Shown here: positions 42,449-64,000 of the stretch, piece after piece | How positions within the stretch are numbered: position 1 is the first letter of the stretch | How the letters are laid out: each line of letters starts with the position of its first letter | Assembly: GCA_964016885.1 (NCBI GenBank) | Contig: OZ024764.1 | Span: 17,918,001-17,982,000 of the forward strand | Length of the DNA stretch: 64,000 nucleotides | Direction of reading: 5' to 3' | Source: Eledone cirrhosa | Taxonomy: Eukaryota | Position numbers and translations under genes: made by a program | The notes under the pieces: generated by a model | Told to the model about the DNA's origin: nothing | What the model saw: only the letters and a program-made list of their open reading frames with translations | The model's database searches: none

Positions 42449-45400
42449 CTAAAACTCATTAATATGAGGGGTATTAATAGAGTATATGCCATATATAATA
42501 CAGAAATGGGTTCTAAAGGACTAGACCTCTTTAATTCCCATCAAATAGTGGTGTATATGCAATATTTAATATAGGAATGGCTTCTACAGGACTAAAACTC
42601 ATTAATATGAGGGTTACTAGTAGAGTATATGCCATATTTAATACAGAAATGGCTTCTAAATGCAGGGAACTCATTAATTCGATGGAAATAGTAGTGTATA
42701 TGCAATATTTAATACAGATATGGCTTCTACAGGATTAATACTCATTCATATGAGGGGTATTAGTAGAGTATATGCCATATATAATACAGAAATGGGTTCT
42801 AAAGACAAGAACTCCTTTAATTCCAATCAAATAGTAGTGTATATGCAATAATTAAGTCAGAAATGACTTCTACAAGAGTAAAACTCATTAATATGAGGGG
42901 TATTAGTAGAGTATATGCCATATATAATGCAGAAATGGCTTCTAAATGCAGGGAACTCATTAATTCGATGGAAATATTAGTGTATATGCCATATTTAATA
43001 CAGAAATGGGTTCTAAAGACAAGAACTCCTTTAATTCCAATCAAATAGTACTGTATATGCAATAATTAATGCAGAAATGGCTTCTACAAGAGTAAAACTC
43101 ATAAATATGAGGGATATTAGTAGAGTATATGCCATATTTAATATGGAAATGGCTTCTAAATGCAGGGAACTAATTAATTCGATGGAAATATTAGTGTATA
43201 TGCCATATTCAATACAGAAATGGGTTCTACAGGACTAAAACTCATTCATATGAGGGGTATTAGTAGAGTATATGCCATATATAATACAGAAATGGCTTCT
43301 AAATGCAGGGAACTCATTAATTCGATGGAAATATTAGTGTATATGCAATATTTAATACAGATATGGCTTCTACAGGACTAATACTCATTCATATGAGGGG
43401 TATTAGTAGAGTATATGTCATATATAATATAGAAATGGCTTCTAAATGCAGGGAACTCATTAATTCGATGGAAATAGTAGTGTATATGCAATATTTAATA
43501 GAGATACGGCTTCTACAGGACTAAAACTCATTAATATGATGGGTATTAGTAGAGTATATGCCATATTTAATACAGAAATGGCTTCTAAATGCATAAAACT
43601 CATTTATTCGATGGAAATAGTAGTGTATATGCAATAATTAAGGCAGAAATGACTTCTACAAGAGTAAAACTCATTAATATGAGGGGTATTAGTAGAGTAT
43701 ATGCCATATATAATGCAGAAATGGCTTCTAAATGCAGGGAACTCATTAATTCGATGGAAATATTAGTGTATATGCCATATTTAATACAGAAATGGGTTCT
43801 AAAGACAAGAACTCCTTTAATTCCAAACAAATAGTAGTGTATATGCAATAGTTAATGCAGAAATGGCTTCTACAAGAGTAAAACTCATTAATATGAGGGA
43901 TATTAGTAGAGTATATGCCATATTTAATATGGAAATGGCTTCTAAATGCAGGGAACTCATTAATTCGATGGAAATATTAGTGTATATGCAATATTTAATA
44001 CAGATATGGCTTCTACAGGACTAATACTCATTCATATGAGGGGTATTAGTAGAGTATATGCCATATATAATACAGAAATGGCTTCTAAATGCAGGGAACT
44101 CATTAATTCGATGGAAATAGTAGTGTATATGCAATATTTAATAGAGATACGGCTTCTACAGGACTAAAACTCATTAATATGATGGGTATTAGTAGAGTAT
44201 ATGCCATATTTAATACAGAAATGGCTTCTAAATGCATAACACTTATTTATTCGATGGAAATAGTAGTGTATATGCAATAATTAATGCAGAAATGGCTTCT
44301 ACAAGAGTAAAACTCATAAATATGAGGGATATTATTAGAGTATATGCCATATTTAATATGGAAATGGCTTCTAAATGCAGGGAACTCATTAATTCGATGG
44401 AATTATTAGTGTATATGCCATATTTAATACAGAAATGGGTTCTAAAGGACTAGAACTCTTTAATTCCCATCAAATAGTAGTGTATATGCAATATTTAATA
44501 CAGAAATGGCTTCTACAGGACTAAAACTCATTAATATGAGGGTTATTAGTAGAGTATATGCCATATTTAATATGGAAATGGCTTCTAAATGCAGGGAACT
44601 AATTAATTCGATGGAAATATTAGTGTATATGCCATATTTAATACAGAAATGGGTTCTACAGGATTAAACTCATTCATATGACGGGTATTAGTAGAGTATA
44701 TGCCATATATAATACAGAAATGGCTTCTAAATGCAGGGAATTCATTAATTCGATGGAAATATTAGTGTATATGCAATATTTAATACAGATATGGCTTCTG
44801 CAGGACTAATACTCATTCATATGAGGGGTATTAGTAGAGTATATGCCATATATAATATAGAAATGGCTTCTAAATGCAGGGAACTCATTAATTCGATGGA
44901 AATATTAGTGTATATGCAATATTTAATACAGATACGGCTTCTACAGGACTGAAACTCATTAATATGATGGGTATTAGTAGAGTATATGCCATATTTAATA
45001 CAGAAATGGCTTCTAAATGCATAAAACTCATTTATTCGATGGAAATAGTAGTGTATATGCAATAATTAAGGCAGAAATGACTTCTACAAGAGTAAAACTC
45101 ATTAATATGAGGGGTATTAGTAGAGTATATGCCATATATAATGCAGAAATGGCTTCTAAATGCAGGGAACTCATTAATTCGATGGAAATATTAGTGTATA
45201 TGCCATATTTAATACAGAAATGGGTTCTAAAGACAAGAACTCCTTTAATTCCAAACAAATAGTAGTGTATATGCAATAATTAATGCAGAAATGGCTTCTA
45301 CAAGAGTAAAACTCATAAATATGAGGGATATTATTAGAGTATATGCCATATTTAATATGGAAATGGCTTCTAAATGCAGGGAACTCATTAATTCGATGGA

Positions 45401-48400
45401 AATAGTAGTGTATATGCAATATTTAATACAGATATGGCTTCTACAGGACTAAAACTCATTAATATGAGGGGTATTAGTAGATTATATGCCATATTTACTA
45501 TGGAAATGGCTTCTAAATGCAGGGAACTCATTAATTCGATGGAAATATTAGTGTATATGCAATAGTTAAGGCAGAAATGACTTCTACAAGAGTAAAACTC
45601 ATTATAATAGGGGTATTAGTAGAGTATATGCCATATATAATGCAGAAATGGCTTCTAAATGCAGGGAACTCATTAATTCGATGGAAATATTAGTGTATAT
45701 GCCATATTTAATACAGATATGGCTTCTACAGGACTAAAACTCATTAATATGAGGGGTATTAATAGAGTATATGCCATATATAATACAGAAATGGGTTCTA
45801 AAGGACTAGACCTCTTTAATTCCCATCAAATAGTGGTGTATATGCAATATTTAATATAGGAATGGCTTCTACAGGACTAAAACTCATTAATATGAGGGTT
45901 ACTAGTAGAGTATATGCCATATTTAATACAGAAATGGCTTCTAAATGCAGGGAACTCATTAATTCGATGGAAATAGTAGTGTATATGCAATATTTAATAC
46001 AGATATGGCTTCTACAGGACTAATACTCATTCATATGAGGGGTATTAGTAGAGTATATGCCATATATAATACAGAAATGGGTTCTAAAGACAAGAACTCC
46101 TTTAATTCCAATCAAATAGTAGTGTATATGCAATAATTAAGTCAGAAATGACTTCTACAAGAGTAAAACTCATTAATATGAGGGGTATTAGTAGAGTATA
46201 TGCCATATATAATGCAGAAATGGCTTCTAAATGCAGGGAACTCATTAATTCGATGGAAATATTAGTGTATATGCCATATTTAATACAGAAATGGGTTCTA
46301 AAGACAAGAACTCCTTTAATTCCAATCAAATAGTACTGTATATGCAATAATTAATGCAGAAATGGCTTCTACAAGAGTAAAACTCATAAATATGAGGGAT
46401 ATTAGTAGAGTATATGCCATATTTAATATGGAAATGGCTTCTAAATGCAGGGAACTCATTAATTCGATGGAAATAGTAGTGTATATGCAATATTTAATAC
46501 AGATATGGCTTCTACAGGACTAAAACTCATTAATATGAGGGGTATTAGTAGATTATATGCCATATTTACTATGGAAATGGCTTCTAAATGCAGGGAACTC
46601 ATTAATTCGATGGAAATATTAGTGTATATGCAATAGTTAAGGCAGAAATGACTTCTACAAGAGTAAAACTCATTATAATAGGGGTATTAGTAGAGTATAT
46701 GCCATATATAATGCAGAAATGGCTTCTAAATGCAGGGAACTCATTAATTCGATGGAAATATTAGTGTATATGCCATATTTAATACAGATATGGCTTCTAC
46801 AGGACTAAAACTCATTAATATGAGGGGTATTAATAGAGTATATGCCATATATAATACAGAAATGGGTTCTAAAGGACTAGACCTCTTTAATTCCCATCAA
46901 ATAGTGGTGTATATGCAATATTTAATATAGGAATGGCTTCTACAGGACTAAAACTCATTAATATGAGGGTTACTAGTAGAGTATATGCCATATTTAATAC
47001 AGAAATGGCTTCTAAATGCAGGGAACTCATTAATTCGATGGAAATAGTAGTGTATATGCAATATTTAATACAGATATGGCTTCTACAGGACTAATACTCA
47101 TTCATATGAGGGGTATTAGTAGAGTATATGCCATATATAATACAGAAATGGGTTCTAAAGACAAGAACTCCTTTAATTCCAATCAAATAGTAGTGTATAT
47201 GCAATAATTAAGTCAGAAATGACTTCTACAAGAGTAAAACTCATTAATATGAGGGGTATTAGTAGAGTATATGCCATATATAATGCAGAAATGGCTTCTA
47301 AATGCAGGGAACTCATTAATTCTATGGAAATATTAGTGTATATGCCATATTTAATACAGAAATGGGTTCTAAAGACAAGAACTCCTTTAATTCCAATCAA
47401 ATAGTACTGTATATGCAATAATTAATGCAGAAATGGCTTCTACAAGAGTAAAACTCATAAATATGAGGGATATTAGTAGAGTATATGCCATATTTAATAT
47501 GGAAATGGCTTCTAAATGCAGGGAACTCATTAATTCGATGGAAATAGTAGTGTATATGCAATATTTAATACAGATATGGCTTCTACAGGACTAAAACTCA
47601 TTAATATGAGGGGTATTAGTAGATTATATGCCATATTTACTATGGAAATGGCTTCTAAATGCAGGGAACTCATTAATTCGATGGAAATATTAGTGTATAT
47701 GCAATAGTTAAGGCAGAAATGACTTCTACAAGAGTAAAACTCATTATAATAGGGGTATTAGTAGAGTATATGCCATATATAATGCAGAAATGGCTTCTAA
47801 ATGCAGGGAACTCATTAATTCGATGGAAATATTAGTGTATATGCCATATTTAATACAGATATGGCTTCTACAGGACTAAAACTCATTAATATGAGGGGTA
47901 TTAATAGAGTATATGCCATATATAATACAGAAATGGGTTCTAAAGGACTAGACCTCTTTAATTCCCATCAAATAGTGGTGTATATGCAATATTTAATATA
48001 GGAATGGCTTCTACAGGACTAAAACTCATTAATATGAGGGTTACTAGTAGAGTATATGCCATATTTAATACAGAAATGGCTTCTAAATGCAGGGAACTCA
48101 TTAATTCGATGGAAATAGTAGTGTATATGCAATATTTAATACAGATATGGCTTCTACAGGACTAATACTCATTCATATGAGGGGTATTAGTAGAGTATAT
48201 GCCATATATAATACAGAAATGGGTTCTAAAGACAAGAACTCCTTTAATTCCAATCAAATAGTAGTGTATATGCAATAATTAAGTCAGAAATGACTTCTAC
48301 AAAAGTAAAACTCATTAATATGAGGGGTATTAGTAGAGTATATGCCATATATAATGCAGAAATGGCTTCTAAATGCAGGGAACTCATTAATTCGATGGAA

Positions 48401-51400
48401 ATATTAGTGTATATGCCATATTTAATAGAGAAATGGGTTCTACAGGACTAAAACTCATTCATATGAGGGGTATTAGTAGAGTATATGCCATATATAATAC
48501 AGAAATGGCTTCTAAATGCAGGGAACTCATTAATTCGATGGAAATATTAGTGTATATGCAATATTTAATACAGATATGGCTTCTACAGGACTAATACTCA
48601 TTCATATGAGGGGTATTAGTAGTATATATGCCATATATAATATAGAAATGGCTTCTAAATGCAGGGAACTCATTAATTCGATGGAAATAGTAGTGTATAT
48701 GCAATATTTAATAGAGATACGGCTTCTACAGGACTAAAACTCATTAATATGATGGGTATTAGTAGAGTATATGCCATATTTAATACAGAAATGGCTTCTA
48801 AATGCATAAAACTCATTTATTCGATGGAAATAGTAGTGTATATGCAATAATTAAGGCAGAAATGACTTCTACAAGAGTAAAACCCATTAATATGAGGGGT
48901 ATTAGTAGAGTATATGCCATATATAATGCAGAAATGGCTTCTAAATGCAGGGAACTCATTAATTCGATGGAAATATTAGTGTATATGCCATATTTAATAC
49001 AGAAATGGGTTCTAAAGACAAGAACTCCTGTAATTCCAAACAAATAGTAGTGTATATGCAATAGTTAATGCAGAAATGGCTTCTACAAGAGTAAAACTCA
49101 TTAATATGAGGGATATTAGTAGAGTATATGCCATATTTAATATGGAAATGGCTTCTAAATGCAGGGAACTCATTAATTCGATGGAAATATTAGTGTATAT
49201 GCAATATTTAATACAGATATGTCTTCTACAGGACTAATACTCATTCATATGAGGGGTATTAGTAGAGTATATGCCATATATAATACAGAAATGGCTTCTA
49301 AATGCAGGGAACTCATTAATTCGATGGAAATAGTAGTGTATATGCAATATTTAATAGAGATACGGCTTCTACAGGACTAAAACTCATTAATATGATGGGT
49401 ATTAGTAGAGTATATGCCATATTTAATACAGAAATGGCTTCTAAATGCATAACACTTATTTATTCGATGGAAATAGTAGTGTATATGCAATAATTAATGC
49501 AGAAATGGCTTCTACAAGAGTAAAACTCATAAATATGAGGGATATTATTAGAGTATATGCCATATTTAATATGGAAATGGCTTCTAAATGCAGGGAACTC
49601 ATTAATTCGATGGAATTATTAGTGTATATGCCATATTTAATACAGAAATGGGTTCTAAAGGACTAGAACTCTTTAATTCCCATCAAATAGTAGTGTATAT
49701 GCAATATTTAATACAGAAATGGCTTCTACAGGACTAAAACTCATTAATATGAGGGTTATTAGTAGAGTATATGCCATATTTAATATGGAAATGGCTTCTA
49801 AATGCAGGGAACTAATTAATTCGATGGAAATATTAGTGTATATGCCATATTTAATACAGAAATGGGTTCTACAGAATTAAACTCATTCATATGACGGGTA
49901 TTAGTAGAGTATATGCCATATATAATACAGAAATGGCTTCTAAATGCAGGGAATTCATTAATTCGATGGAAATATTAGTGTATATGCAATATTTAATACA
50001 GATATGGCTTCTACAGGACTAATACTCATTCATATGAGGGGTATTAGTAGAGTATATGCCATATATAATATAGAAATGGCTTCTAAATGCAGGGAACTCA
50101 TTAATTCGATGGAAATATTAGTGTATATGCAATATTTAATACAGATACGGCTTCTACAGGACTGAAACTCATTAATATGATGGGTATTAGTAGAGTATAT
50201 GCCATATTTAATACAGAAATGGCTTCTAAATGCATAAAACTCATTTATTCGATGGAAATAGTAGTGTATATGCAATAATTAAGGCAGAAATGACTTCTAC
50301 AAGAGTAAAACTCATTAATATGAGGGGTATTAGTAGAGTATATGCCATATATAATGCAGAAATGGCTTCTAAATGCAGGGAACTCATTAATTCGATGGAA
50401 ATATTAGTGTATATGCCATATTTAATACAGAAATGGGTTCTAAAGACAAGAACTCCTTTAATTCCAAACAAATAGTAGTGTATATGCAATAATTAATGCA
50501 GAAATGGCTTCTACAAGAGTAAAACTCATAAATATGAGGGATATTATTAGAGTATATGCCATATTTAATATGGAAATGGCTTCTAAATGCAGGGAACTCA
50601 TTAATTCAATGGAAATATTAGTGTATATGCAATATTTAATACAGATACGGCTTCTACAGGACTAAAACTAATTAATATGATGGGTATTAGTAGAGTATAT
50701 GCCATATTTAATACAGAAATGGCTTCTAAATGCATAAAACTCATTTATTCGATGGAAATAGTAGTGTATATGCAATAATTAAGGCAGAAATGACTTCTAC
50801 AAGAGTAAAACTCATTAATATGAGGGGTATTAGTAGAGTATATGCCATATATAATGCAGAAATGGCTTCTAAATGCAGGGAACTCATTAATTCGATGGAA
50901 ATATTAGTGTATATGCCATATTTAATACAGAAATGGGTTCTAAAGACAAGAACTCCTTTAATTCCAAACAAAAAGTAGTGTATATGCAATAATTAATGCA
51001 GAAATGGCTTCTACAAGAGTAAAACTCATTAATATGAGGGATATTAGTAGAGTATATGCCATATTTAATATGGAAATGGCTTCTAAATGCAGGGAACTCA
51101 TTAATTCGATGGAAATATTAGTGTATATGCAATATTTAATACAGATATGGCTTTTACAGGACTAATACTCATTCATATGAGGGGTATTAGTAGAGTATAT
51201 GCCATATATAATACAGAAATGGCTTCTAAATGCAGGGAACTCATTAATTCGATGGAAATAGTAGTGTATATGCAATATTTAATAGAGATACGGCTTCTAC
51301 AGGACTAAAACTCATTAATATGATGGGTATTAGTAGAGTATATGCCATATTTAATACAGAAATGGCTTCTAAATGCATAAAACTTATTTATTCGATGGAA

Positions 51401-54400
51401 ATAGTAGTGTATATGCAATAATTAATGCAGAAATGGCTTCTACAAGAGTAAAACTCATAAATATGAAGGATATTAGTAGAGTATATGCCATATTTAATAT
51501 GGAAATGGCTTCTAAATGCAGGGAACTCATTAATCCGATGGAAATAGTAGTGTATATGCAATATTTAATACAGATATGGCTTCTACAGGACTAAAACTCA
51601 TTAATATGAGGGGTATCAGTAGATTATATGCCATATTTACTATGGAAATGGCTTCTAAATGCAGGGAACTCATTAATTCGATGGAAATATTAGTGTATAT
51701 GCAATAGTTAAGGCAGAAATGACTTCTACAAGAGTAAAACTCATTATAATAGGGGTATTAGTAGAGTATATGCCATATATAATGCAGAAATGGCTTCTAA
51801 ATGCAGGGAACTCATTAATTCGATGGAAATAGTAGTGTATATCCAATATTTAATAGAGATACGGCTTCTACAGGACTAAAACTCATTAATATGATGGGTA
51901 TTAGTAGAGTATATGCCATATTTAATACTGAAATGGCTTCTAAATGCATAAAACTCATTAATTCGATGGAAATATTAGTGTATATGCAATATTTAAGGCA
52001 GAAATGACTTCTACAAGAGTAAAACTCATTAATATGAGGGGTATTAGTAGAGTATATGCCATATATAATGCAGAAATGGCTTCTAAATACAGGGAACTCA
52101 TTAATTCGATGGAATTATTAGTGTATATGCCATATTTAATACAGAAATGGGTTCTAAAGGACTAGAACTCTTTAATTCCCATCAAATAGTAGTGTATATG
52201 CAATATTTAATACAGAAATGGCTTCTACAGGACTAAAACTCATTAATATGAGGGTTATTAGTAGAGTATATGCCATATTTAATATGGAAATGGCTTCTAA
52301 ATGCAGGGAACTCATTAATTCGATGGAAATAGTAGTGTATATGCAATATTTAATACAGATATGGCTTCTACAGGACTAAAACTCATTAATATGAGGGGTA
52401 TTAGTAGATTATATGCCATATTTACTATGGAAATGGCTTCTGAATGCATAAAACTCATTTATTCGATGGAAATAGTAGTGTATATGCAATAATTAAGGCA
52501 GAAATGACTTCTACAAGAGAAAAACTCATTAATATGAGGGGTATTAGTAGAGTATATGCCATATATAATGCAGAAATGGCTTCTAAATGCAGGGAACTCA
52601 TTAATTCGATGGAAATATTAGTGTATATGCCATATTTAATACAGAAATGGGTTCTAAAGACAAGAACTCCTTTAATTCCAATCAAATAGTACTGTATATG
52701 CAATAATTAATGCAGAAATGGCTTCTACAAGAGTAAAACACATAAATATGAGGGATATTAGTAGAGTATATGCCATATTTAATATGGAAATGGCTTCTAA
52801 ATGCAGGGAACTCATTAATGCGATGGAAATATTAGTGTATATGCCATATTTAATACAGAAATGGGTTCTAAAGACAAGAACTCCTTTAATTCCCATCAAA
52901 TAGTAGTGTATATGCAATATTTAATACAGAATTGGCTTCTACAGGACTAAAAGTCATTAATATGAGGGTTATTAGTAGAGTATATGCCATATTTAATACA
53001 GAAATGGCTTCTAAATGCATAAAACTCATTTATTCGATGGAAATATTAGTGTATATGCAATAATTAAGGCAGAAATGACTTCTACAAGAGTAAAACTCAT
53101 TAATATGAGGGGTATTAGTAGAGTATATGCCATATATAATGCAGAAATGGCTTCTAGATGCAGGGAACTCATTAATTCGAAGGAAATATTAGTGTATATG
53201 CCATACTTAATACAAAAATGGGTTCTAAAGACAAGAACTCCTTTAATTCCAATCAAATAGTAGTGTATTTGCAATATTTAATACAGGAATGGCTTCTACA
53301 GCACTAACACTCATTAATATGAGGGTTATTAGTAGAGTATATGCCATATTTAATACAGAAATGGCTTCTAAATGCAGAAAACTCATTTATTCGATGGAGA
53401 TAGTAGTCTATATGCAATAATTAAGGCAGAAATGACTTCTACAAGAGTAAAACTCATTAATATGAGGGGTATTAGTAGAGTATATGCCATATATAATGCA
53501 GAAATGGCTTCTAAATGCAGGGAACTAATTAATTCGATGGAAATATTAGTGTATATGCCATATTTAATACAGAAATGGGTTCTACAGGACTAAAACTCAT
53601 TCATATGAGGGGTATTGGTAGAGTATATGCCATATATAATACAGAAATGGCTTCTACAAGAGTAAAACTCATAAATATGAGGGATATTAGTAGAGTATAT
53701 GCCATATTTAATATGGAAATGGCTTCTAAATGCAGGGAACTCATTAATTCGATGGAAATAGTAGTGTATATGCAATATTTAATACAGATATGGCTTCTAC
53801 AGGACTAAAACTCATTAATATGAGGGGTATTAGTAGATTATATGCCATATTTACTATGGAAATGGCTTCTAAATGCAGGGAACTCATTAATTCGATGGAA
53901 ATATTAGTGTATATGCAATATTTAATACAGATATGGCTTCTACAAGACTAATACTCATTCATATGAGGGGTATTAGTAGAGTATATGCCATATATAATGC
54001 AGAAATGGCTTCTAAATGCAGGGAACTATTTAATTCGATGGAAATATTAGTGTATATGCCATATTTAATACAGAAATGGGTTCTAAAGACAAGAACTCCT
54101 TTAATTCCAATCAAATAGTAGTGTATATGCAATATTTAATACAGAAATGGCTTCTACAGGACTAATACTCATTAATATGAGGGGTATGAGTAGAATATAT
54201 GCCATATTTAATATGGAAATGGCTTCTAAATGCAGGGAACTCATTAATTCGATGGAAATAGTAGTGTATATGCAATATTTAATACAGATATGGCTTCTAC
54301 AGGACTAAAACTCATTAATATGAGGGGTATTAGTAGAGTATATGCCATATATAATGCAGAAATGGCTTCTAGATGCAGGGAACTCATTAATTCGATGGAA

Positions 54401-57400
54401 ATATTAGTGTATATGCCATATTTAATACAGAAATGGGTTCTAAAGACAAGAACTCCTTTAATTCCAATCAAATATTAGTATATATGCAATAATTAATGCC
54501 GAAATGGCTTCTAGAAGAGTAAAACTCATAAATATGAGGGATATTAGTAGAGTATATGCCATATTTAATATAGAAATGGCTTCTAAATGCAGGGAACTCA
54601 TTAATTCGATGGAAATAGTATTGTATATGCAATATTTAATACAGATATGGCTTCTACAGGACTAAAACTCATTAATATGAGGGGTATTAGTAGAGTAGAT
54701 GCCATATATAATGCAGAAATGGCTTCTAAATGCAGGGAACTCATTAATTCGATGGAAATAGTAGTGTATATGCAATATTTAATAGAGATACGGCTTCTAC
54801 AGGACTAAAACTCATTAATATGATGGGTATTAGTAGAGTATATACCATATTTAATACAGAAATGGCTTCTAAATGCATAAAACTCATTTATTCGATGGAA
54901 ATAGTAGTGTATATGCAATAATTAAGGCAGAAATGACTTCTACAAGAGTAAAACTCATTAATATGAGGGATATTAGTAGAGTATATGCCATATATAATAC
55001 AGAAATGGGTTCTAAAGGACTAGACCTCTTTAATTCCCATCAAATAGTGGTGTATATGCAATATTTAATATAGGAATGGCTTCTACAGGACTAAAACTCA
55101 TTAATATGAGGGTTACTAGTAGAGTATATGCCATATTTAATACAGAAATGGCTTCTAAATGCAGGGAACTCATTAATTCGATGGAAATAGTAGTGTATAT
55201 GCAATATTTAATACAGATATGGCTTCTACAGGACTAATACTCATTCATATGAGGGGTATTAGTAGAGTATATGCCATATATAATACAGAAATGGGTTCTA
55301 AAGACAAGAACTCCTTTAATTCCAATCAAATAGTAGTGTATATGCAATAATTAAGTCAGAAATGACTTCTACAAGAGTAAAACTCATTAATATGAGGGGT
55401 ATTAGTAGAGTATATGCCATATATAATGCAGAAATGGCTTCTAAATGCAGGGAACTCATTAATTCGATGGAAATATTAGTGTATATGCCATATTTAATAC
55501 AGAAATGGGTTCTACAGGACTAAAACTCATTCATATGAGGGGTATTAGTAGAGTATATGCCATATATAATACAGAAATGGCTTCTAAATGCAGGGAACTC
55601 ATTAATTCGATGGAAATATTAGTGTATATGCAATATTTAATACAGATATGGCTTCTACAGGACTAATACTCATTCATATGAGGGGTATTAGTAGTATATA
55701 TGCCATATATAATATAGAAATGGCTTCTAAATGCAGGGAACTCATTAATTCGATGGAAATAGTAGTGTATATGCAATATTTAATAGAGATACGGCTTCTA
55801 CAGGACTAAAACTCATTAATATGATGGGTATTAGTAGAGTATATGCCATATTTAATACAGAAATGGCTTCTAAATGCATAAAACTCATTTATTCGATGGA
55901 AATAGTAGTGTATATGCAATAATTAAGGCAGAAATGACTTCTACAAGAGTAAAACTCATTAATATGAGGGTATTAGTAGAGTATATGCCATATATAATGC
56001 AGAAATGGCTTCTAAATGCAGGGGGAACTCATTAATTCGATGGAAATATAGTGTATATGCCATATTTAATACAGAAATGGGTTCTAAAGACAAGAACTCC
56101 TTTAATTCCAAACAAATAGTAGTGTAATATGCAATAGTTAATGCAGAAATGGCTTCTACAAGAGTAAAACTCATTAATATGAGGGATATTAGTAGAGTAT
56201 ATGCCATATTTAATATGGAAATGGCTTCTAAATGCAGAGGGAACTCATTAATTCGATGGAAATATTAGTGTATATGCAATATTTAATACAGATATGTCTT
56301 CTACAGGACTAATACTCATTCATATGAGGGGTATTATTAGAGTATATGCCATATATAATACAGAAATGGCTTCTAAATGCAAGGGAACTCATTAATTCGA
56401 TGGAAATAGTAGTGTATATGCAATATTTAATAGAGATACGGCTTCTACAGGACTAAAACTCATTAATATGATGGGTATTAGTAGAGTATATGCCATATTT
56501 AATACAGAAATGGCTTCTAAATGCATAACACTTATTTATTCGATGGAAATAGTAGTGTATATGCAATAATTAATGCAGAAATGGCTTCTACAAGAGTAAA
56601 ACTCATAAATATGAGGGATATTATTAGAGTATATGCCATATTTAATATGGAAATGGCTTCTAAATGCAGGGAACTCATTAATTCGATGGAATTATTAGTG
56701 TATATGCCATATTTAATACAGAAATGGGTTCTAAAGGACTAGAACTCTTTAATTCCCATCAAATAGTAGTGTATATGCAATATTTAATACAGAAATGGCT
56801 TCTACAGGACTAAAACTCATTAATATGAGGGTTATTAGTAGAGTATATGCCATATTTAATATGGAAATGGCTTCTAAATGCAGGGAACTAATTAATTCGA
56901 TGGAAATATTAGTGTATATGCCATATTTAATACAGAAATGGGGTTCTACAGAATTAAACTCATTCATATGACGGGTATTAGTAGAGTATATGCCATATAT
57001 AATACAGAAATGGCTTCTAATGCAGGGAATTCATTAATTCGATGGAAATATTAGTGTATATGCAATATTTAATACAGATATGGCTTCTACAGGACTAATA
57101 CTCATTCATATGAGGGGTATTAGTAGAGTATATGCCATATATAATATAGAAATGGCTTCTAATGCAGGGAACTCATTAATTCGATGGAAATATTAGTGTA
57201 TATGCAATATTAATACAGATACGGCTTCTACAGGACTGAAAACTCATTAATATGATGGGTATTAGTAGAGTATATGCCATATTTAATACAGAAATGGCTT
57301 CTAAATGCATAAAACTCATTTATTCGATAGAAATAGTAGTGTATATGCAATAATTAAGGCAGAAATGACTTCTACAAGAGTAAAACTCATTAATATGAGG

Positions 57401-60400
57401 GGTATTAGTAGAGTATATGCCATATATAATGCAGAAATGGCTTCTAAATGCAGGGAACTCATTAATTCGATGGAAATATTAGTGTATATGCCATATTTAA
57501 TAACAGAAATGGGTTCTAAAGACAAGAACTCCTTTAATTCCAAACAAATAGTAGTGTATATGCAATAATTAATGCAGAAATGGCTTCTACAAGAGTAAAA
57601 CTCATAATATGAGGGATATTATTAGAGTATATGCCATATTTAATATGGAAATGGCTTCTAAATGCAGGGAACTCATTAATTCGATGGAAATATAGTGTAT
57701 ATGCAATATTTAATACAGATACGGCTTCTACAGGACTAAAACTAATTAATATGATGGGTATTAGTAGAGTATATGCCATATTTAATACAGAAATGCTTCT
57801 AAATGCATAAAACTCATTTATTCGATGGAAATAGTAGTGTATATGCAATAATTAAGGCAGAAATGACTTCTACAAGAGTAAAACTCATTAATATGAGGGG
57901 TATTAGTAGAGTATATGCCATATATAATGCAGAATGGCTTCTAAATGCAGGGAACTCATTAATTCGATGGAAATATTAGTGTATATGCCATATTTAATAC
58001 AGAAATGGGTTCTAAAGACAAGAACTCCTTTAATTCCAACAAAAGTAGTGTATGTGCAATAATTAATGCAGAAATGGCTTCTACAAGAGTAAAACTCATT
58101 AATATGAGGGATATTAGTAGAGTATATGCCATATTTAATATGGAAATGGCTTCTAAATGCAGGGAACTCATTAATTCGATGGAAATATTAGTGTATATGC
58201 AATATTTAATACAGATATGGCTTTTACAGGACTAATACTCATTCATATGAGGGGTATTAGTAGAGTATATGCCATATATAATACAGAAATGGCTTCTAAA
58301 TGCAGGGAACTCATTAATTCGATGGAAATAGTAGTGTATATGCAATATTTAATAGAGATACGGCTTCTACAGGACTAAAACTCATTAATATGATGGGTAT
58401 TAGTAGAGTATATGCCATATTTAATACAGAAATGGCTTCTAAATGCATAAAACTTATTTATTCGATGGAAATAGTAGTGTATATGCAATAATTAATGCAG
58501 AAATGGCTTCTACAAAGAGTAAAACTCATAAATATGAGGGATATTAGTAGAGTATATGCCATATTTAATATGGAAATGGCTTCTAAATGCAGGGAACTCA
58601 TTAATCCGATATGGAAATAGTAGTGTATATGCAATATTTAATACAGATATGGCTTCTACAGGACTAAAACTCATTAATATGAGGGGTATTAGTAGATTAT
58701 ATGCCATATTTACTATGGAAATGGCTTCTAAATGCAGGGAACTCATTAATTCGATGGAAATATTAGTGTATATGCAATAGTTAAGGCAGAAATGACTTCT
58801 ACAAGAGTAAAACTCATTATAATAGGGGTATTAGTAGAGTATATGCCATATATAATGCAGAAATGGCTTCTAAATGCAGGGAACTCATTAATTCGATGGA
58901 AATAGTAGTGTATATCCAATATTTAATAGAGATACGGCTTCTACAGGACTAAAACTCATTAATATGATGGGTATTAGTAGAGTATATGCCATATTTAATA
59001 CTGAAATGGCTTCTAAATGCATAAAACTCATTAATTCGATGGAAATATTAGTGTATATGCAATATTTAAGGCAGAAATGACTTCTACAAGAGTAAAACTC
59101 ATTAATATGAGGGGTATTAGTAGAGTATATGCCATATATAATGCAGAAATGGCTTCTAAATACAGGGAACTCATTAATTCGATGGAATTATTAGTGTATA
59201 TGCCATATTTAATACAGAAATGGGTTCTAAAGGACTAGAACTCTTTAATTCCCATCAAATAGTAGTGTATATGCAATATTTAATACAGAAATGGCTTCTA
59301 CAGGACTAAAACTCATTAATATGAGGGTTATTAGTAGAGTATATGCCATATTTAATATGGAAATGGCTTCTAAATGCAGGGAACTCATTAATTCGATGGA
59401 AATAGTAGTGTATATGCAATATTTAATACAGATATGGCTTCTACAGGACTAAAACTCATTAATATGAGGGGTATTAGTAGATTATATGCCATATTTACTA
59501 TGGAAATGGCTTCTGAATGCATAAAACTCATTTATTCGATGGAAATAGTAGTGTATATGCAATAATTAAGGCAGAAATGACTTCTACAAGAGAAAAACTC
59601 ATTAATATGAGGGGTATTAGTAGAGTATATGCCATATATAATGCAGAAATGGCTTCTAAATGCAGGGAACTCATTAATTCGATGGAAATATTAGTGTATA
59701 TGCCATATTTAATACAGAAATGGGTTCTAAAGACAAGAACTCCTTTAATTCCAATCAAATAGTACTGTATATGCAATAATTAATGCAGAAATGGCTTCTA
59801 CAAGAGTAAAACACATAAATATGAGGGATATTAGTAGAGTATATGCCATATTTAATATGGAAATGGCTTCTAAATGCAGGGAACTCATTAATGCGATGGA
59901 AATATTAGTGTATATGCCATATTTAATACAGAAATGGGTTCTAAAGACAAGAACTCCTTTAATTCCCATCAAATAGTAGTGTATATGCAATATTTAATAC
60001 AGAATTGGCTTCTACAGGACTAAAAGTCATTAATATGAGGGTTATTAGTAGAGTATATGCCATATTTAATACAGAAATGGCTTCTAAATGCATAAAACTC
60101 ATTTATTCGATGGAAATATTAGTGTATATGCAATAATTAAGGCAGAAATGACTTCTACAAGAGTAAAACTCATTAATATGAGGGGTATTAGTAGAGTATA
60201 TGCCATATATAATGCAGAAATGGCTTCTAGATGCAGGGAACTCATTAATTCGAAGGAAATATTAGTGTATATGCCATACTTAATACAAAAATGGGTTCTA
60301 AAGACAAGAACTCCTTTAATTCCAATCAAATAGTAGTGTATTTGCAATATTTAATACAGGAATGGCTTCTACAGCACTAACACTCATTAATATGAGGGTT

Positions 60401-63400
60401 ATTAGTAGAGTATATGCCATATTTAATACAGAAATGGCTTCTAAATGCAGAAAACTCATTTATTCGATGGAGATAGTAGTCTATATGCAATAATTAAGGC
60501 AGAAATGACTTCTACAAGAGTAAAACTCATTAATATGAGGGGTATTAGTAGAGTATATGCCATATATAATGCAGAAATGGCTTCTAAATGCAGGGAACTC
60601 ATTAATTCGATGGAAATATTAGTGTATATGCAATATTTAATACCGAAATGGGTTCTAAAGACAAGAACTCCTTTAATTCCAATCAAATAGTAGTGTATAT
60701 GCAATAATTAATGCAGAAATGGCTTCTACAAGAGTAAAACTCATAAATATGAGGGATATTAATAGAGTATAGGCCATATTTAATATGGAAATGGCTTCTA
60801 AATGCAGGGAACTAATTAATTCGATGGAAATATTAGTGTATATGCCATATTTAATACAGAAATGGGTTCTACAGGACTAAAACTCATTCATATGAGGGGT
60901 ATTGGTAGAGTATATGCCATATATAATACAGAAATGGCTTCTACAAGAGTAAAACTCATAAATATGAGGGATATTAGTAGAGTATATGCCATATTTAATA
61001 TGGAAATGGCTTCTAAATGCAGGGAACTCATTAATTCGATGGAAATAGTAGTGTATATGCAATATTTAATACAGATATGGCTTCTACAGGACTAAAACTC
61101 ATTAATATGAGGGGTATTAGTAGATTATATGCCATATTTACTATGGAAATGGCTTCTAAATGCAGGGAACTCATTAATTCGATGGAAATATTAGTGTATA
61201 TGCAATATTTAATACAGATATGGCTTCTACAAGACTAATACTCATTCATATGAGGGGTATTAGTAGAGTATATATGCCATATATAATGCAGAAATGGCTT
61301 CTAAATGCAGGGAACTATTTAATTCGATGGAAATATTAGTGTATATGCCATATTTAATACAGAAATGGGTTCTAAAGACAAGAACTCCTTTAATTCCAAT
61401 CAAATAGTAGTGTATATGCAATATTTAATACAGAAATGGCTTCTACAGGACTAATACTCATTAATATGAGGGGTATGAGTAGAATATATGCCATATTTAA
61501 TATGGAAATGGCTTCTAAATGCAGGGAACTCATTAATTCGATGGAAATAGTAGTGTATATGCAATATTTAATACAGATATGGCTTCTACAGGACTAAAAC
61601 TCATTAATATGAGGGGTATTAGTAGAGTATATGCCATATATAATGCAGAAATGGCTTCTAGATGCAGGGAACTCATTAATTCGATGGAAATATTAGTGTA
61701 TATGCCATATTTAATACAGAAATGGGTTCTAAAGACAAGAACTCCTTTAATTCCAATCAAATATTAGTATATATGCAATAATTAATGCCGAAATGGCTTC
61801 TAGAAGAGTAAAACTCATAAATATGAGGGATATTAGTAGAGTATATGCCATATTTAATATAGAAATGGCTTCTAAATGCAGGGAACTCATTAATTCGATG
61901 GAAATAGTAGTGTATATGCAATATTTAATACAGATATGGCTTCTACAGGACTAAAACTCATTAATATGAGGGGTATTAGTAGAGTAGATGCCATATATAA
62001 TGCAGAAATGGCTTCTAAATGCAGGGAACTCATTAATTCGATGGAAATAGTAGTGTATATGCAATATTTAATAGAGATACGGCTTCTACAGGACTAAAAC
62101 TCATTAATATGATGGGTATTAGTAGAGTATATACCATATTTAATACAGAAATGGCTTCTAAATGCATAAAACTCATTTATTCGATGGAAATAGTAGTGTA
62201 TATGCAATAATTAAGGCAGAAATGACTTCTACAAGAGTAAAACTCATTAATATGAGGGATATTAGTAGAGTATATGCCATATATAATGCAGAAATGGCTT
62301 CTAAATGCAGGGAACTCATTAATTCGATGGAAATATTAGTGTATATGCCATATTTAATACAGAAATGGGTTCTAAAGACAAGAACTCCTTTAATTCCAAT
62401 CAAATAGTAGTGTATATGCAATAATTAATGCAGAAATGGCTTCTACAAGAGTAAAACTCATAAATATGAGGGATGTTAGTAGAGTATAGGCCATATTTAA
62501 TATGGAAATGGCTTCTAAATGCAGGGAACTCATTAATTCGATGGAAATATTAGTGTATATGCCATATTTAATACAGATATGGATTCTACAGGACTAAAAC
62601 TCATTAATATGAGGGGTATTAGTAGAGTATATGCCATATATAATACTGAAATGGATTCTAAATGCAGGGAACTCAGTAATTCGATGGAAATAGTAGTGTA
62701 TATCCAATATTTAATAGAGATATGGCTTCTACAGGATTAAACTCATTAATATGATGGGTATTAGTAGATTATAGGCCATATTTAATACAGAAATGGGTTC
62801 AAAAGGACTAGACCTCTTTAATTCCCATCAAATAGTAGTGTATATGCAATATTTAATAGAGATACGGCTTCTACAGGACTAAAACTCATTAATATGATGG
62901 GTATTAGTAGAGTATATGCCATATATAATACAGAAATGGCTTCTAAATGCAGAAAACTCATTTATTCGATGGAAATATTAGTGTATATGCAATAATGCAA
63001 TAATTAAGGCAGAAATGACTTCTACAAGAGTAAAACCCATTAATATGAGGGGTATTAGTAGAGTATATGCCATATATAATGCAGAAATGGCTTCTAAATG
63101 CAGGGAACTCATTAATTCGATGGAAATATTAGTGTATATGCCATATTTAATACAGAAATGGCTTCTAAAGACAAGAACTCCTTTAATTCCAATCAAATAG
63201 TAGTGTATATGCAATAATTAATGCAGAAATGGCTTCTAAAAGAGTAAAACTCATAAATATGAGGGATATTAGTAGAGTATATGCCATATTTAATATGGAA
63301 ATGGCTTCTAAATGCAGGGAACTCATTAATTCGATGGAAATATTAGTGTATATGCAATATTTAATACAGATATGTCTTCTACAGGAATAATACTCATTCA

Positions 63401-64000
63401 TATGAGGGGTATTAGTAGAGTATATGCCATATATAATACAGAAATGGCTTCTAAATGCAGGGAACTCATTAATTCGATGGAAATATTAGTGTATATGCCA
63501 TATTTAATACAGATATGGCTTCTACAGGACTAAAACTCATTAATATGAGTGGTATTAGTAGAGTATATGCCATATATAATACAGAAATGGGTTCTAAAGG
63601 ACTAGACCTCTTTAATTCCCATCAAATAGTGGTGTAAATGCAATATTTAATACAGGAATGGCTTCTACAGGACTAAAACTCATTAATATGAGGGTTACTA
63701 GTAGAGTATATGCCATATTTAATACAGAAATGGCTTCTAAATGCAGGGAACTCATTAATTCGATGGAAATAGTAGTGTATATGCAATAATTAAGGCGGAA
63801 ATGACTTCTACAAGAGTAAAACTCATTAATATGAGGGGTATTAGTAGAGTATATGCCATATATAATGCAGAAATGGCTTCTAAATGCAGGGAACTCATTA
63901 ATTCGATGGAAATATTAGTGTATATGCCATATTTAATACAGAAATGGGTTCTAAAGGACTAGAACTCTTTAATTCCCATCAAATAGTAGTGTATATGCAA
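42449..64000 (+). repeat. Large satellite array of about 300 71/72-bp monomers in three classes with higher-order repeats; runs off the window end
   Basis: Class a (72 bp; ...CTACAGGACTAAAACTCATTAATATGAGGGGTATTAGTAGAG...), class b (71 bp; ...CTAAATGCAGGGAACTCATTAATTCGATGG...), class c (71 bp; ...GGGTTCTAAAGACAAGAACTCCTTTAATTCC...). Marker recurrences at 1071, 5213 and about 7073 bp. Confidence 0.97.

Follow-up and report, generated by a model that had tools for sequence, protein, structure and literature searches.

Within a 64,000-nucleotide (nt) stretch of the Eledone cirrhosa genome (assembly GCA_964016885.1, contig OZ024764.1, positions 17,918,001 to 17,982,000 of the forward strand; hereafter, the window, which lies on the contig labelled C25), we found a long satellite array whose monomer corresponds to an internal part of a dispersed fold-back element that carries a predicted hammerhead ribozyme. 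Two families of fold-back elements, A and B, occur in the window, and family B is divided into the subfamilies B1 (which has a 68-nt counterpart of the monomer), B2 (in which this segment is 3 nt longer), B3 and B4 (one copy). We conclude, with a probability of about 0.87, that the satellite monomer is a contiguous internal slice of B2 that was likely duplicated once in tandem and was later amplified and homogenised, and that the resulting array is predicted to be catalytically dead.

The + strand of the array is antisense to the hammerhead. Segmentation of the part in the window gave 293 monomers (122 of type a, 122 of type b, 28 of type c, 10 of type d and 11 others), which are 79–83% identical to the B2 slice and are arranged mainly as an alternation of a and b, that is, as a 143-bp dimer, with c and d variants. 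Repeat distances are 143, 357, 1,071 and around 7,070 bp, of which the last three represent higher-order periods. The array extends past the end of the window to a total of around 49.5 kb, with a 1.6-kb inversion close to its far end; as it is truncated on the left by an assembly gap, this length covers only the sequence to the right of the gap.

Homology between the satellite and family B is far beyond chance. A BLASTN search with a 500-nt piece of the satellite against the rest of the window matched both arms near 24.1 kb (E = 1.2e-10) and, more weakly (E = 3e-5), the element at 12.1 kb. A preliminary description of this stretch had aligned element positions 24170-24220 with satellite positions 44475-44528, and its count of 45 identical positions out of 51, with one 3-nt gap, is correct, as is its report that an arm sequence of family B recurs exactly in some monomers (GGACTAGAACT, present 6 times in the array). 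The similarity also withstands comparison with shuffled controls: types a, b, c and d score 83, 67, 63 and 73, respectively, against the left arm of family B, and dinucleotide shuffles reach maxima of 36–43, so that 0 of 2,000 shuffles match the observed score for any monomer type. The 3-nt gap vanishes when the monomer is aligned to B2, of which it is a single contiguous 71-nt slice. The majority sequences of the four types are identical to this slice at 60/72 (a), 57/71 (b), 57/72 (c) and 56/71 (d) positions; type b aligns free of gaps, the types overall do so entirely or nearly, and 67 of the 71 positions are matched by at least one type in the window.

Starting at hammerhead position A9/10.1, the slice covers stem II, GAAA, stem III, the GUA site and the 3′ strand of stem I, followed by around 33 nt of the tail; each of its boundaries has AT. 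This register differs from the one first proposed, in which the monomer ran between two ACT microhomologies just outside the ribozyme, excluded the ribozyme core and took its end from a sequence resembling the tail of family A. Most of the ribozyme in fact lies inside the monomer, and only the CUGAUG half and the 5′ strand of stem I are left out. For types b, c and d, the final 18 nt or so agree with element sequence that lies downstream of the second ACT (0 of 2,000 shuffles for each type), and they show no match with the tail of family A (271, 1,789 and 875 of 2,000 shuffles). What can be said for the ACT register comes from type a, the end of which gives equal and non-significant scores (6 versus 6) for families B and A (175 and 114 of 2,000 shuffles), and from the existence of A/B chimaeric elements; at locus L030, a family A tail is joined to a family B body, and the join falls in a short motif common to both. 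At locus L093, one monomer begins like the element and ends like type a and thereby provides an intermediate between the two, and old arrays elsewhere in the genome match B2 at 69–70 of 71 positions in the corrected register. The ACT boundaries are thus refuted unless type a arose independently, which leaves them scarcely tenable, and nothing from family A is needed to account for the monomer.

Elements of family B are spread across the genome (2,340 first-look candidates, 40 of which were scored), and B2 gave 107 exact motif matches. Copies are head-to-head fold-backs whose two arms differ in length (one long, one short), situated between (TA)n/(CA)n tracts, and the short arms stop inside the segment that is homologous to the monomer, beside (TA)n. 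Unfolded copies of B1 and B2 start at GGGC next to (TA)n or an inverted arm, in a search in which the pattern itself demanded upstream A/T. The sense strand of each arm contains CUGAUGA, a 3-bp stem II closed by U-U, GAAA, a 4-bp stem III, GUA and stem I. In 14 chosen copies, 94% of cells of the hammerhead pairing are paired, compared with 31–49% in slid controls, and one stem I pair is altered on both strands between subfamilies. The window contains six occurrences of the motif (0.39 expected), none of which is inside the satellite. We predict that family B carries a type I hammerhead ribozyme with a putative cleavage activity.

Judged by its sequence, the slice carries about two-thirds of the ribozyme and omits its first catalytic half; the array is therefore probably catalytically dead. 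A motif search for CUGANGA found none in the array of the window, and the GAAA half-core is retained in 0 of 290 monomers there; four changes are common to all monomer types in the window, and the further changes that window-type arrays have in common erase GAAA. These features bear on the idea that the array is a decayed non-LTR retrozyme (LTR, long terminal repeat), formed of a self-cleaved circular RNA copied in tandem. Tandem hammerhead repeats akin to Penelope terminal repeats are known, according to the accessible parts of two reports (PMC7229834; 10.64898/2026.07.22.740005). Even the most ancestral arrays, however, repeat only 71 of the roughly 140 nt of the element, and CUGAUG, the distal tail and the 5′ strand of stem I are all missing from them; the junction is situated around 30 nt from the GUA site; and retrozyme units, as described in the accessible text of PMC7229834, are 150–450 nt long and contain whole ribozymes. 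We regard a retrozyme origin as largely refuted and very improbable.

The sequence that links element-type sequence to the satellite junction was found at 42 places, including a 14-copy, 71-bp array on C22. Among 30 loci from this search, tandem arrays were present only at L089/L090, and the others were shorter fold-backs or unrelated. Arrays that are monomeric and near-ancestral lie on contigs other than that of the window and are free-standing. Their column majorities match B2 at 70/71 positions (L309; 26 monomers, 78% pairwise identity), 69/71 (L091; 14 monomers) and 66/71 (L308; 25 monomers), compared with 59–63/71 for dimeric arrays. The GAAA half-core is kept in 8 of 16 monomers in L091+ and in 33 of 1,693 monomers overall, a set in which some loci overlap. 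A direction of descent from element to satellite is favoured because the slice consists of half a ribozyme core and one stem strand with partners that lie outside it, and because the element is the centroid of the old arrays; tree tests leave the direction undecided. The reverse direction, in which the element took up a monomer from an existing satellite or in which some monomers were later converted by elements, could draw on that indecision and on the greater divergence of old-array monomers relative to the sampled B2 copies. We consider it highly unlikely: the outside partners of the half core and the stem strand change in step with them across subfamilies, the same hammerhead terminates an autonomous element (see below), a second family of elements has a hammerhead of the same unusual type, and the position of B2 is that of a centroid and not that of one diverged monomer.

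The autonomous element was reached through two incidental long copies of B3, which have around 600 nt in common upstream of the hammerhead. Tracing of this untranslated region (UTR) led to L227, where remnants of a reverse transcriptase (RT) and an endonuclease, the UTR and the hammerhead follow in this order on one strand. Twenty loci were then chosen by their RT/endonuclease DNA; within the fetched flanks, 12 have the B3 hammerhead (one is the query locus and two look like a single duplication), 2 have the UTR only and 6 have neither. At L270, the UTR is followed by a hammerhead at 223 and by an open frame at 263-2539 (759 codons) that encodes the motifs RWR (a variant of RWK), DKT, YRDD (at 392), CNCLNKEAC (CxCx5C), YIGMT (at 648), CDLC (CxxC) and CMH (CxH). 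By these motifs, it is one open reading frame (ORF) for an RT with a C-terminal GIY-YIG endonuclease. A Pfam scan of the product gave no RT or GIY-YIG match; a piece of a sister copy matched GIY-YIG at E = 0.0044, below the cut-off. The protein has 1,191 homologues and, among those listed, PF26215 appears often and PF01541 and PF00078 once each. The B3/L270 element has its hammerhead in a pseudo-LTR, inverted 5′-truncated copies and (TA)n targets.

B3 is, on this sequence evidence, the terminal hammerhead of a Penelope-like element that its motifs place in the Hydra clade. In the accessible parts of PMC8557442, Hydra-clade elements likewise have a single ORF with a C-terminal GIY-type endonuclease, the DKT, RW[K/R], CxCx5C, CxxC and CxH motifs, a hammerhead in the terminal repeat, inverted 5′-truncated copies and (TA)n flanks. 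The L270 element differs from these in its long, microsatellite-containing 3′ UTR and its large family of non-coding relatives of around 140 nt; its hammerhead differs from that listed for Hydra-1_oBim, and a 17-nt motif of the L270 hammerhead has 0 matches in the supplement of that work. The satellite itself, unlike Hydra-clade elements, is not an element. Alignment shows B2 to be closely similar to the L270 terminal repeat across the hammerhead and tail. B1 and B2 may be non-autonomous derivatives, around 140 nt in length, that were mobilised by such a Hydra-clade element. The suggestion that the satellite came from a Penelope-like, hammerhead-bearing element is thus supported by an ORF behind B3, but an ORF for B1 and B2 was not found. 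Among loci with Pfam GIY-YIG matches (30 + 20 of 150), elements have their own hammerheads and none has an ORF-linked copy of family B. In five of these other RT–GIY-YIG loci (L170, L171, L174, L178 and L182), which form a separate family, a hammerhead lies 355–408 nt past the ORF, on its 3′ side, and shares with family B the unusual stem II of 3 bp with U-U closure. The parent of B3 contains 0.5–1 kb of (TA)n/(TG)n microsatellite in its 3′ UTR and makes inverted structures of 5–10 kb with nested insertions (L247, L227 and L248–L251).

Several observations count against the account given here. With respect to the ribozyme, the covariation amounts to a single pair among related sequences, position 10.1-11.1 is U-U, free-energy folding of single copies did not recover the hammerhead, and Rfam at its gathering threshold reported no hammerhead and just the tRNA-like head of a short interspersed element (SINE). 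With respect to the donor, no ORF was linked to B1 or B2, 30 of 31 motif matches examined for B2 show neither a linked ORF nor a common upstream extension, and a search for an autonomous parent of B2 did not find one. With respect to direction, the first tree, which places 30 of 33 satellite rows on one branch (98/89) inside B2 and to that extent supports the account, has an assumed root; the bootstrap of the second tree had not settled, and three unclassified element copies and the B1 copies beyond 12 were omitted from the trees. Approximately unbiased (AU) tests on 71 columns reject nothing (P = 0.124 for a single satellite clade, 0.449 for satellite with B2 and 0.106 for satellite with B3). 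Old-array monomers are around 85% identical to B2, and the sampled B2 copies, which were picked by a 26-nt exact match and are biased towards young copies, are 96% identical to their own majority outside the selected columns; the arrays may therefore predate the sampled copies. Finally, the birth locus was not found. Intermediates with 2–5 units still inside an element, which the preliminary description had envisaged, gave 0 matches with two exact gapped patterns, and element flank or terminus is present on 0 of 1,693 monomers in the arrays examined.

The B2 slice most likely became a satellite through a single tandem duplication, by slippage or repair at the DNA level at the 2-nt AT microhomology. 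Growth to arrays of 14–26 copies would have come next, followed by spread between chromosomes as duplicated blocks, often accompanied by the 10/20/41-bp repeat that lies next to them; the 143-bp a/b dimer and the longer periods would be the product of unequal exchange, with homogenisation. Across loci, array ends have unique flanks in common. At 39 partly overlapping loci, the ends mostly adjoin SINE-like pieces, other repeats or these common unique flanks. A degenerate 10/20/41-bp repeat (TTTTAGTCAT-like) directly adjoins arrays on C20, C22, C24 and C25, and satellite and repeat seem to constitute a composite block that spreads as one.

The same donor and register would also be compatible with a first tandem that was made during retrotransposition, by repeated template jumps of a Penelope RT, after which arrays perhaps spread in trans, given that the monomer includes the site at which short arms end. 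The ends of the fold-back short arms within the monomer-homologous segment, beside (TA)n, fit such an origin, as do the strand switches seen in many arrays, which resemble those of Penelope insertions, and the internal initiation and extension of both strands that the accessible text of PMC11167929 describes for an anole element. Nevertheless, among the ends at the 39 loci, only L093 starts at the short-arm end site, beside a CA/TA microsatellite, and no array bears an element terminus. We consider this route unlikely, and prefer duplication at the DNA level.

The junction motif has 1,006 matches genome-wide, 110 of them in the window, which corresponds to around 2,800 monomers and 0.2 Mb, or around 0.007% of the 3.0-Gb assembly. 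This is a lower bound, as arrays border on gaps and diverged arrays are under-represented among the motif matches; the initial label of a major satellite is unsupported. Arrays are present on 11 large contigs (C1, C8, C9, C13, C18, C20, C21, C22, C24, C25 and C26) and on some small contigs, and on six of the 11 they lie no more than 1.3 Mb from a contig end. The exact motif is not listed on C2–C7, C10–C12, C14–C17 or C19. C18, C22, C24 and C25 each have several clusters, and a single cluster per chromosome was accordingly rejected. Contigs that span monomer junctions were also found in sequencing runs labelled as two other organisms, from one study (X4 record 15 and X5 record 22). For one additional record, span and difference count coincide between the two runs, such that carry-over is possible; the read depths of these runs reflect mostly element-derived reads and are not copy numbers.

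No function of the array is indicated. It is conceivable, although we think it a long shot, that the arrays are kept as ‘half-ribozyme’ loci: their transcripts would act as a source of antisense or small RNA against the very abundant elements of family B and of the Hydra Penelope-like group, or those of near-ancestral arrays would supply the substrate half of a split hammerhead, with element RNA completing it in trans. In the same speculative vein, the 143-bp dimer could mark a young, nucleosome-phased, centromere-adjacent satellite on some small chromosomes.

Other repeats are frequent in the window, which is rich in microsatellites; an inverted-repeat search was swamped by (TA)n. At 309-332 lies a member of a third family with the hammerhead motif, in which stem II is GGAC/GTCC; it matches L180 2636-2774 at 81%. 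A 325-nt near-perfect palindrome at 27390-27714, with CTGATGA on both strands, is probably another fold-back family. Minisatellites occur at 19572-22984 (65 bp), 14603-15495 (101 bp) and 4563-5008 (91 bp; this unit contains CTGATGA and resembles a dispersed piece at 23705-23793), and a 72-bp minisatellite occurs in opposite orientations at 1306-1826 and 19066-19560. SINE-like copies with a tRNA head lie at 8684-8741 and 42093-42231, and pieces like them are found within or beside several arrays elsewhere. Outside the window, four hammerhead motifs spaced around 490–510 nt apart on one strand (L179 8068-9553) form a candidate intact non-LTR retrozyme array. Coordinates of the main features are given in Table 1.

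Table 1 Features of the window and of related loci (window positions unless a locus is named)
Feature	Position	Strand	Remarks
Satellite array	42449..64000	+	around 300 monomers of 71–72 nt
200-N assembly gap	42249..42448	.	adjoins left edge of visible array
Example type-a monomer	44474..44545	+	72 nt, corrected register
Example type-b monomer	44546..44616	+	71 nt; last 18 nt are antisense of decayed GAAA half-core and stem II
B1 fold-back element	24143..24315	.	long arm with tail; short arm ends in (TA)n; one hammerhead motif per strand
B1 slice homologous to one monomer	24169..24236	+	68 nt; lacks 3 nt found in B2 and satellite
Predicted type I hammerhead, B1 short arm	24253..24298	+	CUGAUGA, short stem II, GAAA, 4-bp stem III, GUA site, stem I 3′ strand; motif read locally, pairing support at family level
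Second B1 copy, inverted	23978..24124	-	adjoins first copy
B3 fold-back element	12050..12214	.	hammerhead and tail same as terminal repeat of probable Hydra-clade element at L270
Family A fold-back element	11547..11681	.	tried as donor of monomer end, not supported
Further family A fold-backs	24398-24599 and 32018-32435		
10/20/41-bp repeat	L091 161-2506; L092 9-1274; L093 5328-6963; L097 641-2893		
10/20/41-bp repeat	L098 after 5372; L102; L103; L309 flank		

Transposon-derived satellites, Penelope-related satellites and hammerhead repeats have all been described previously. The present satellite forms a long head-to-tail array at several loci and is homologous to a dispersed element beyond chance, as in transposon-derived satellites. 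In the accessible accounts of that group (PMC9659126; 10.64898/2026.09.17.752431, class ii), an internal piece of a non-autonomous element likewise becomes a monomer, and short arrays grow and homogenise; here, by contrast, the donor is probably a derivative of a Hydra-type Penelope-like element and the piece is a ribozyme fragment. Similarly, non-LTR retrozymes and hammerhead satellites (newt satellite 2, schistosome repeats and cricket pDo500; accessible parts of PMC7229834 and 10.64898/2026.07.22.740005) are tandem repeats that are homologous to a Penelope terminal repeat and a type I hammerhead. Unlike those repeats as described there, the satellite has a 71-nt unit with an incomplete ribozyme that is not bounded by the cleavage site, has dimeric and higher-order periods, and is predicted to be unable to self-cleave or circularise. 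In the main text of the review PMC9659126, ‘Penelope’ occurs 0 times, and the 2.7-kb unit of catfish HviSat02-2707 is reported, in the available part of PMC11955569, just as related to Penelope. Our literature search, in which subscription journals and repeat databases were thinly covered and bioRxiv supplements were outside the scope, found no description of this satellite or of a half-hammerhead satellite.

We conclude that this satellite illustrates a known process cleanly and does not represent a new mechanism. A single genome presents a nearly complete series of satellite birth, from an autonomous element of the Hydra clade, as assigned by motifs, to non-coding relatives of around 140 nt, to a 71-nt slice, to old unhomogenised arrays that have the element as their centroid and, finally, to dimeric arrays with higher-order periods. 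As the ancestor is known to the base, it is possible to measure directly how fast and in what order a satellite changes as it homogenises. Hammerhead-bearing elements can seed satellites that have, by prediction, lost catalysis, and screens for retrozymes by ribozyme motif, which demand two complete motifs (in the accessible part of 10.64898/2026.07.22.740005), would miss such satellites.

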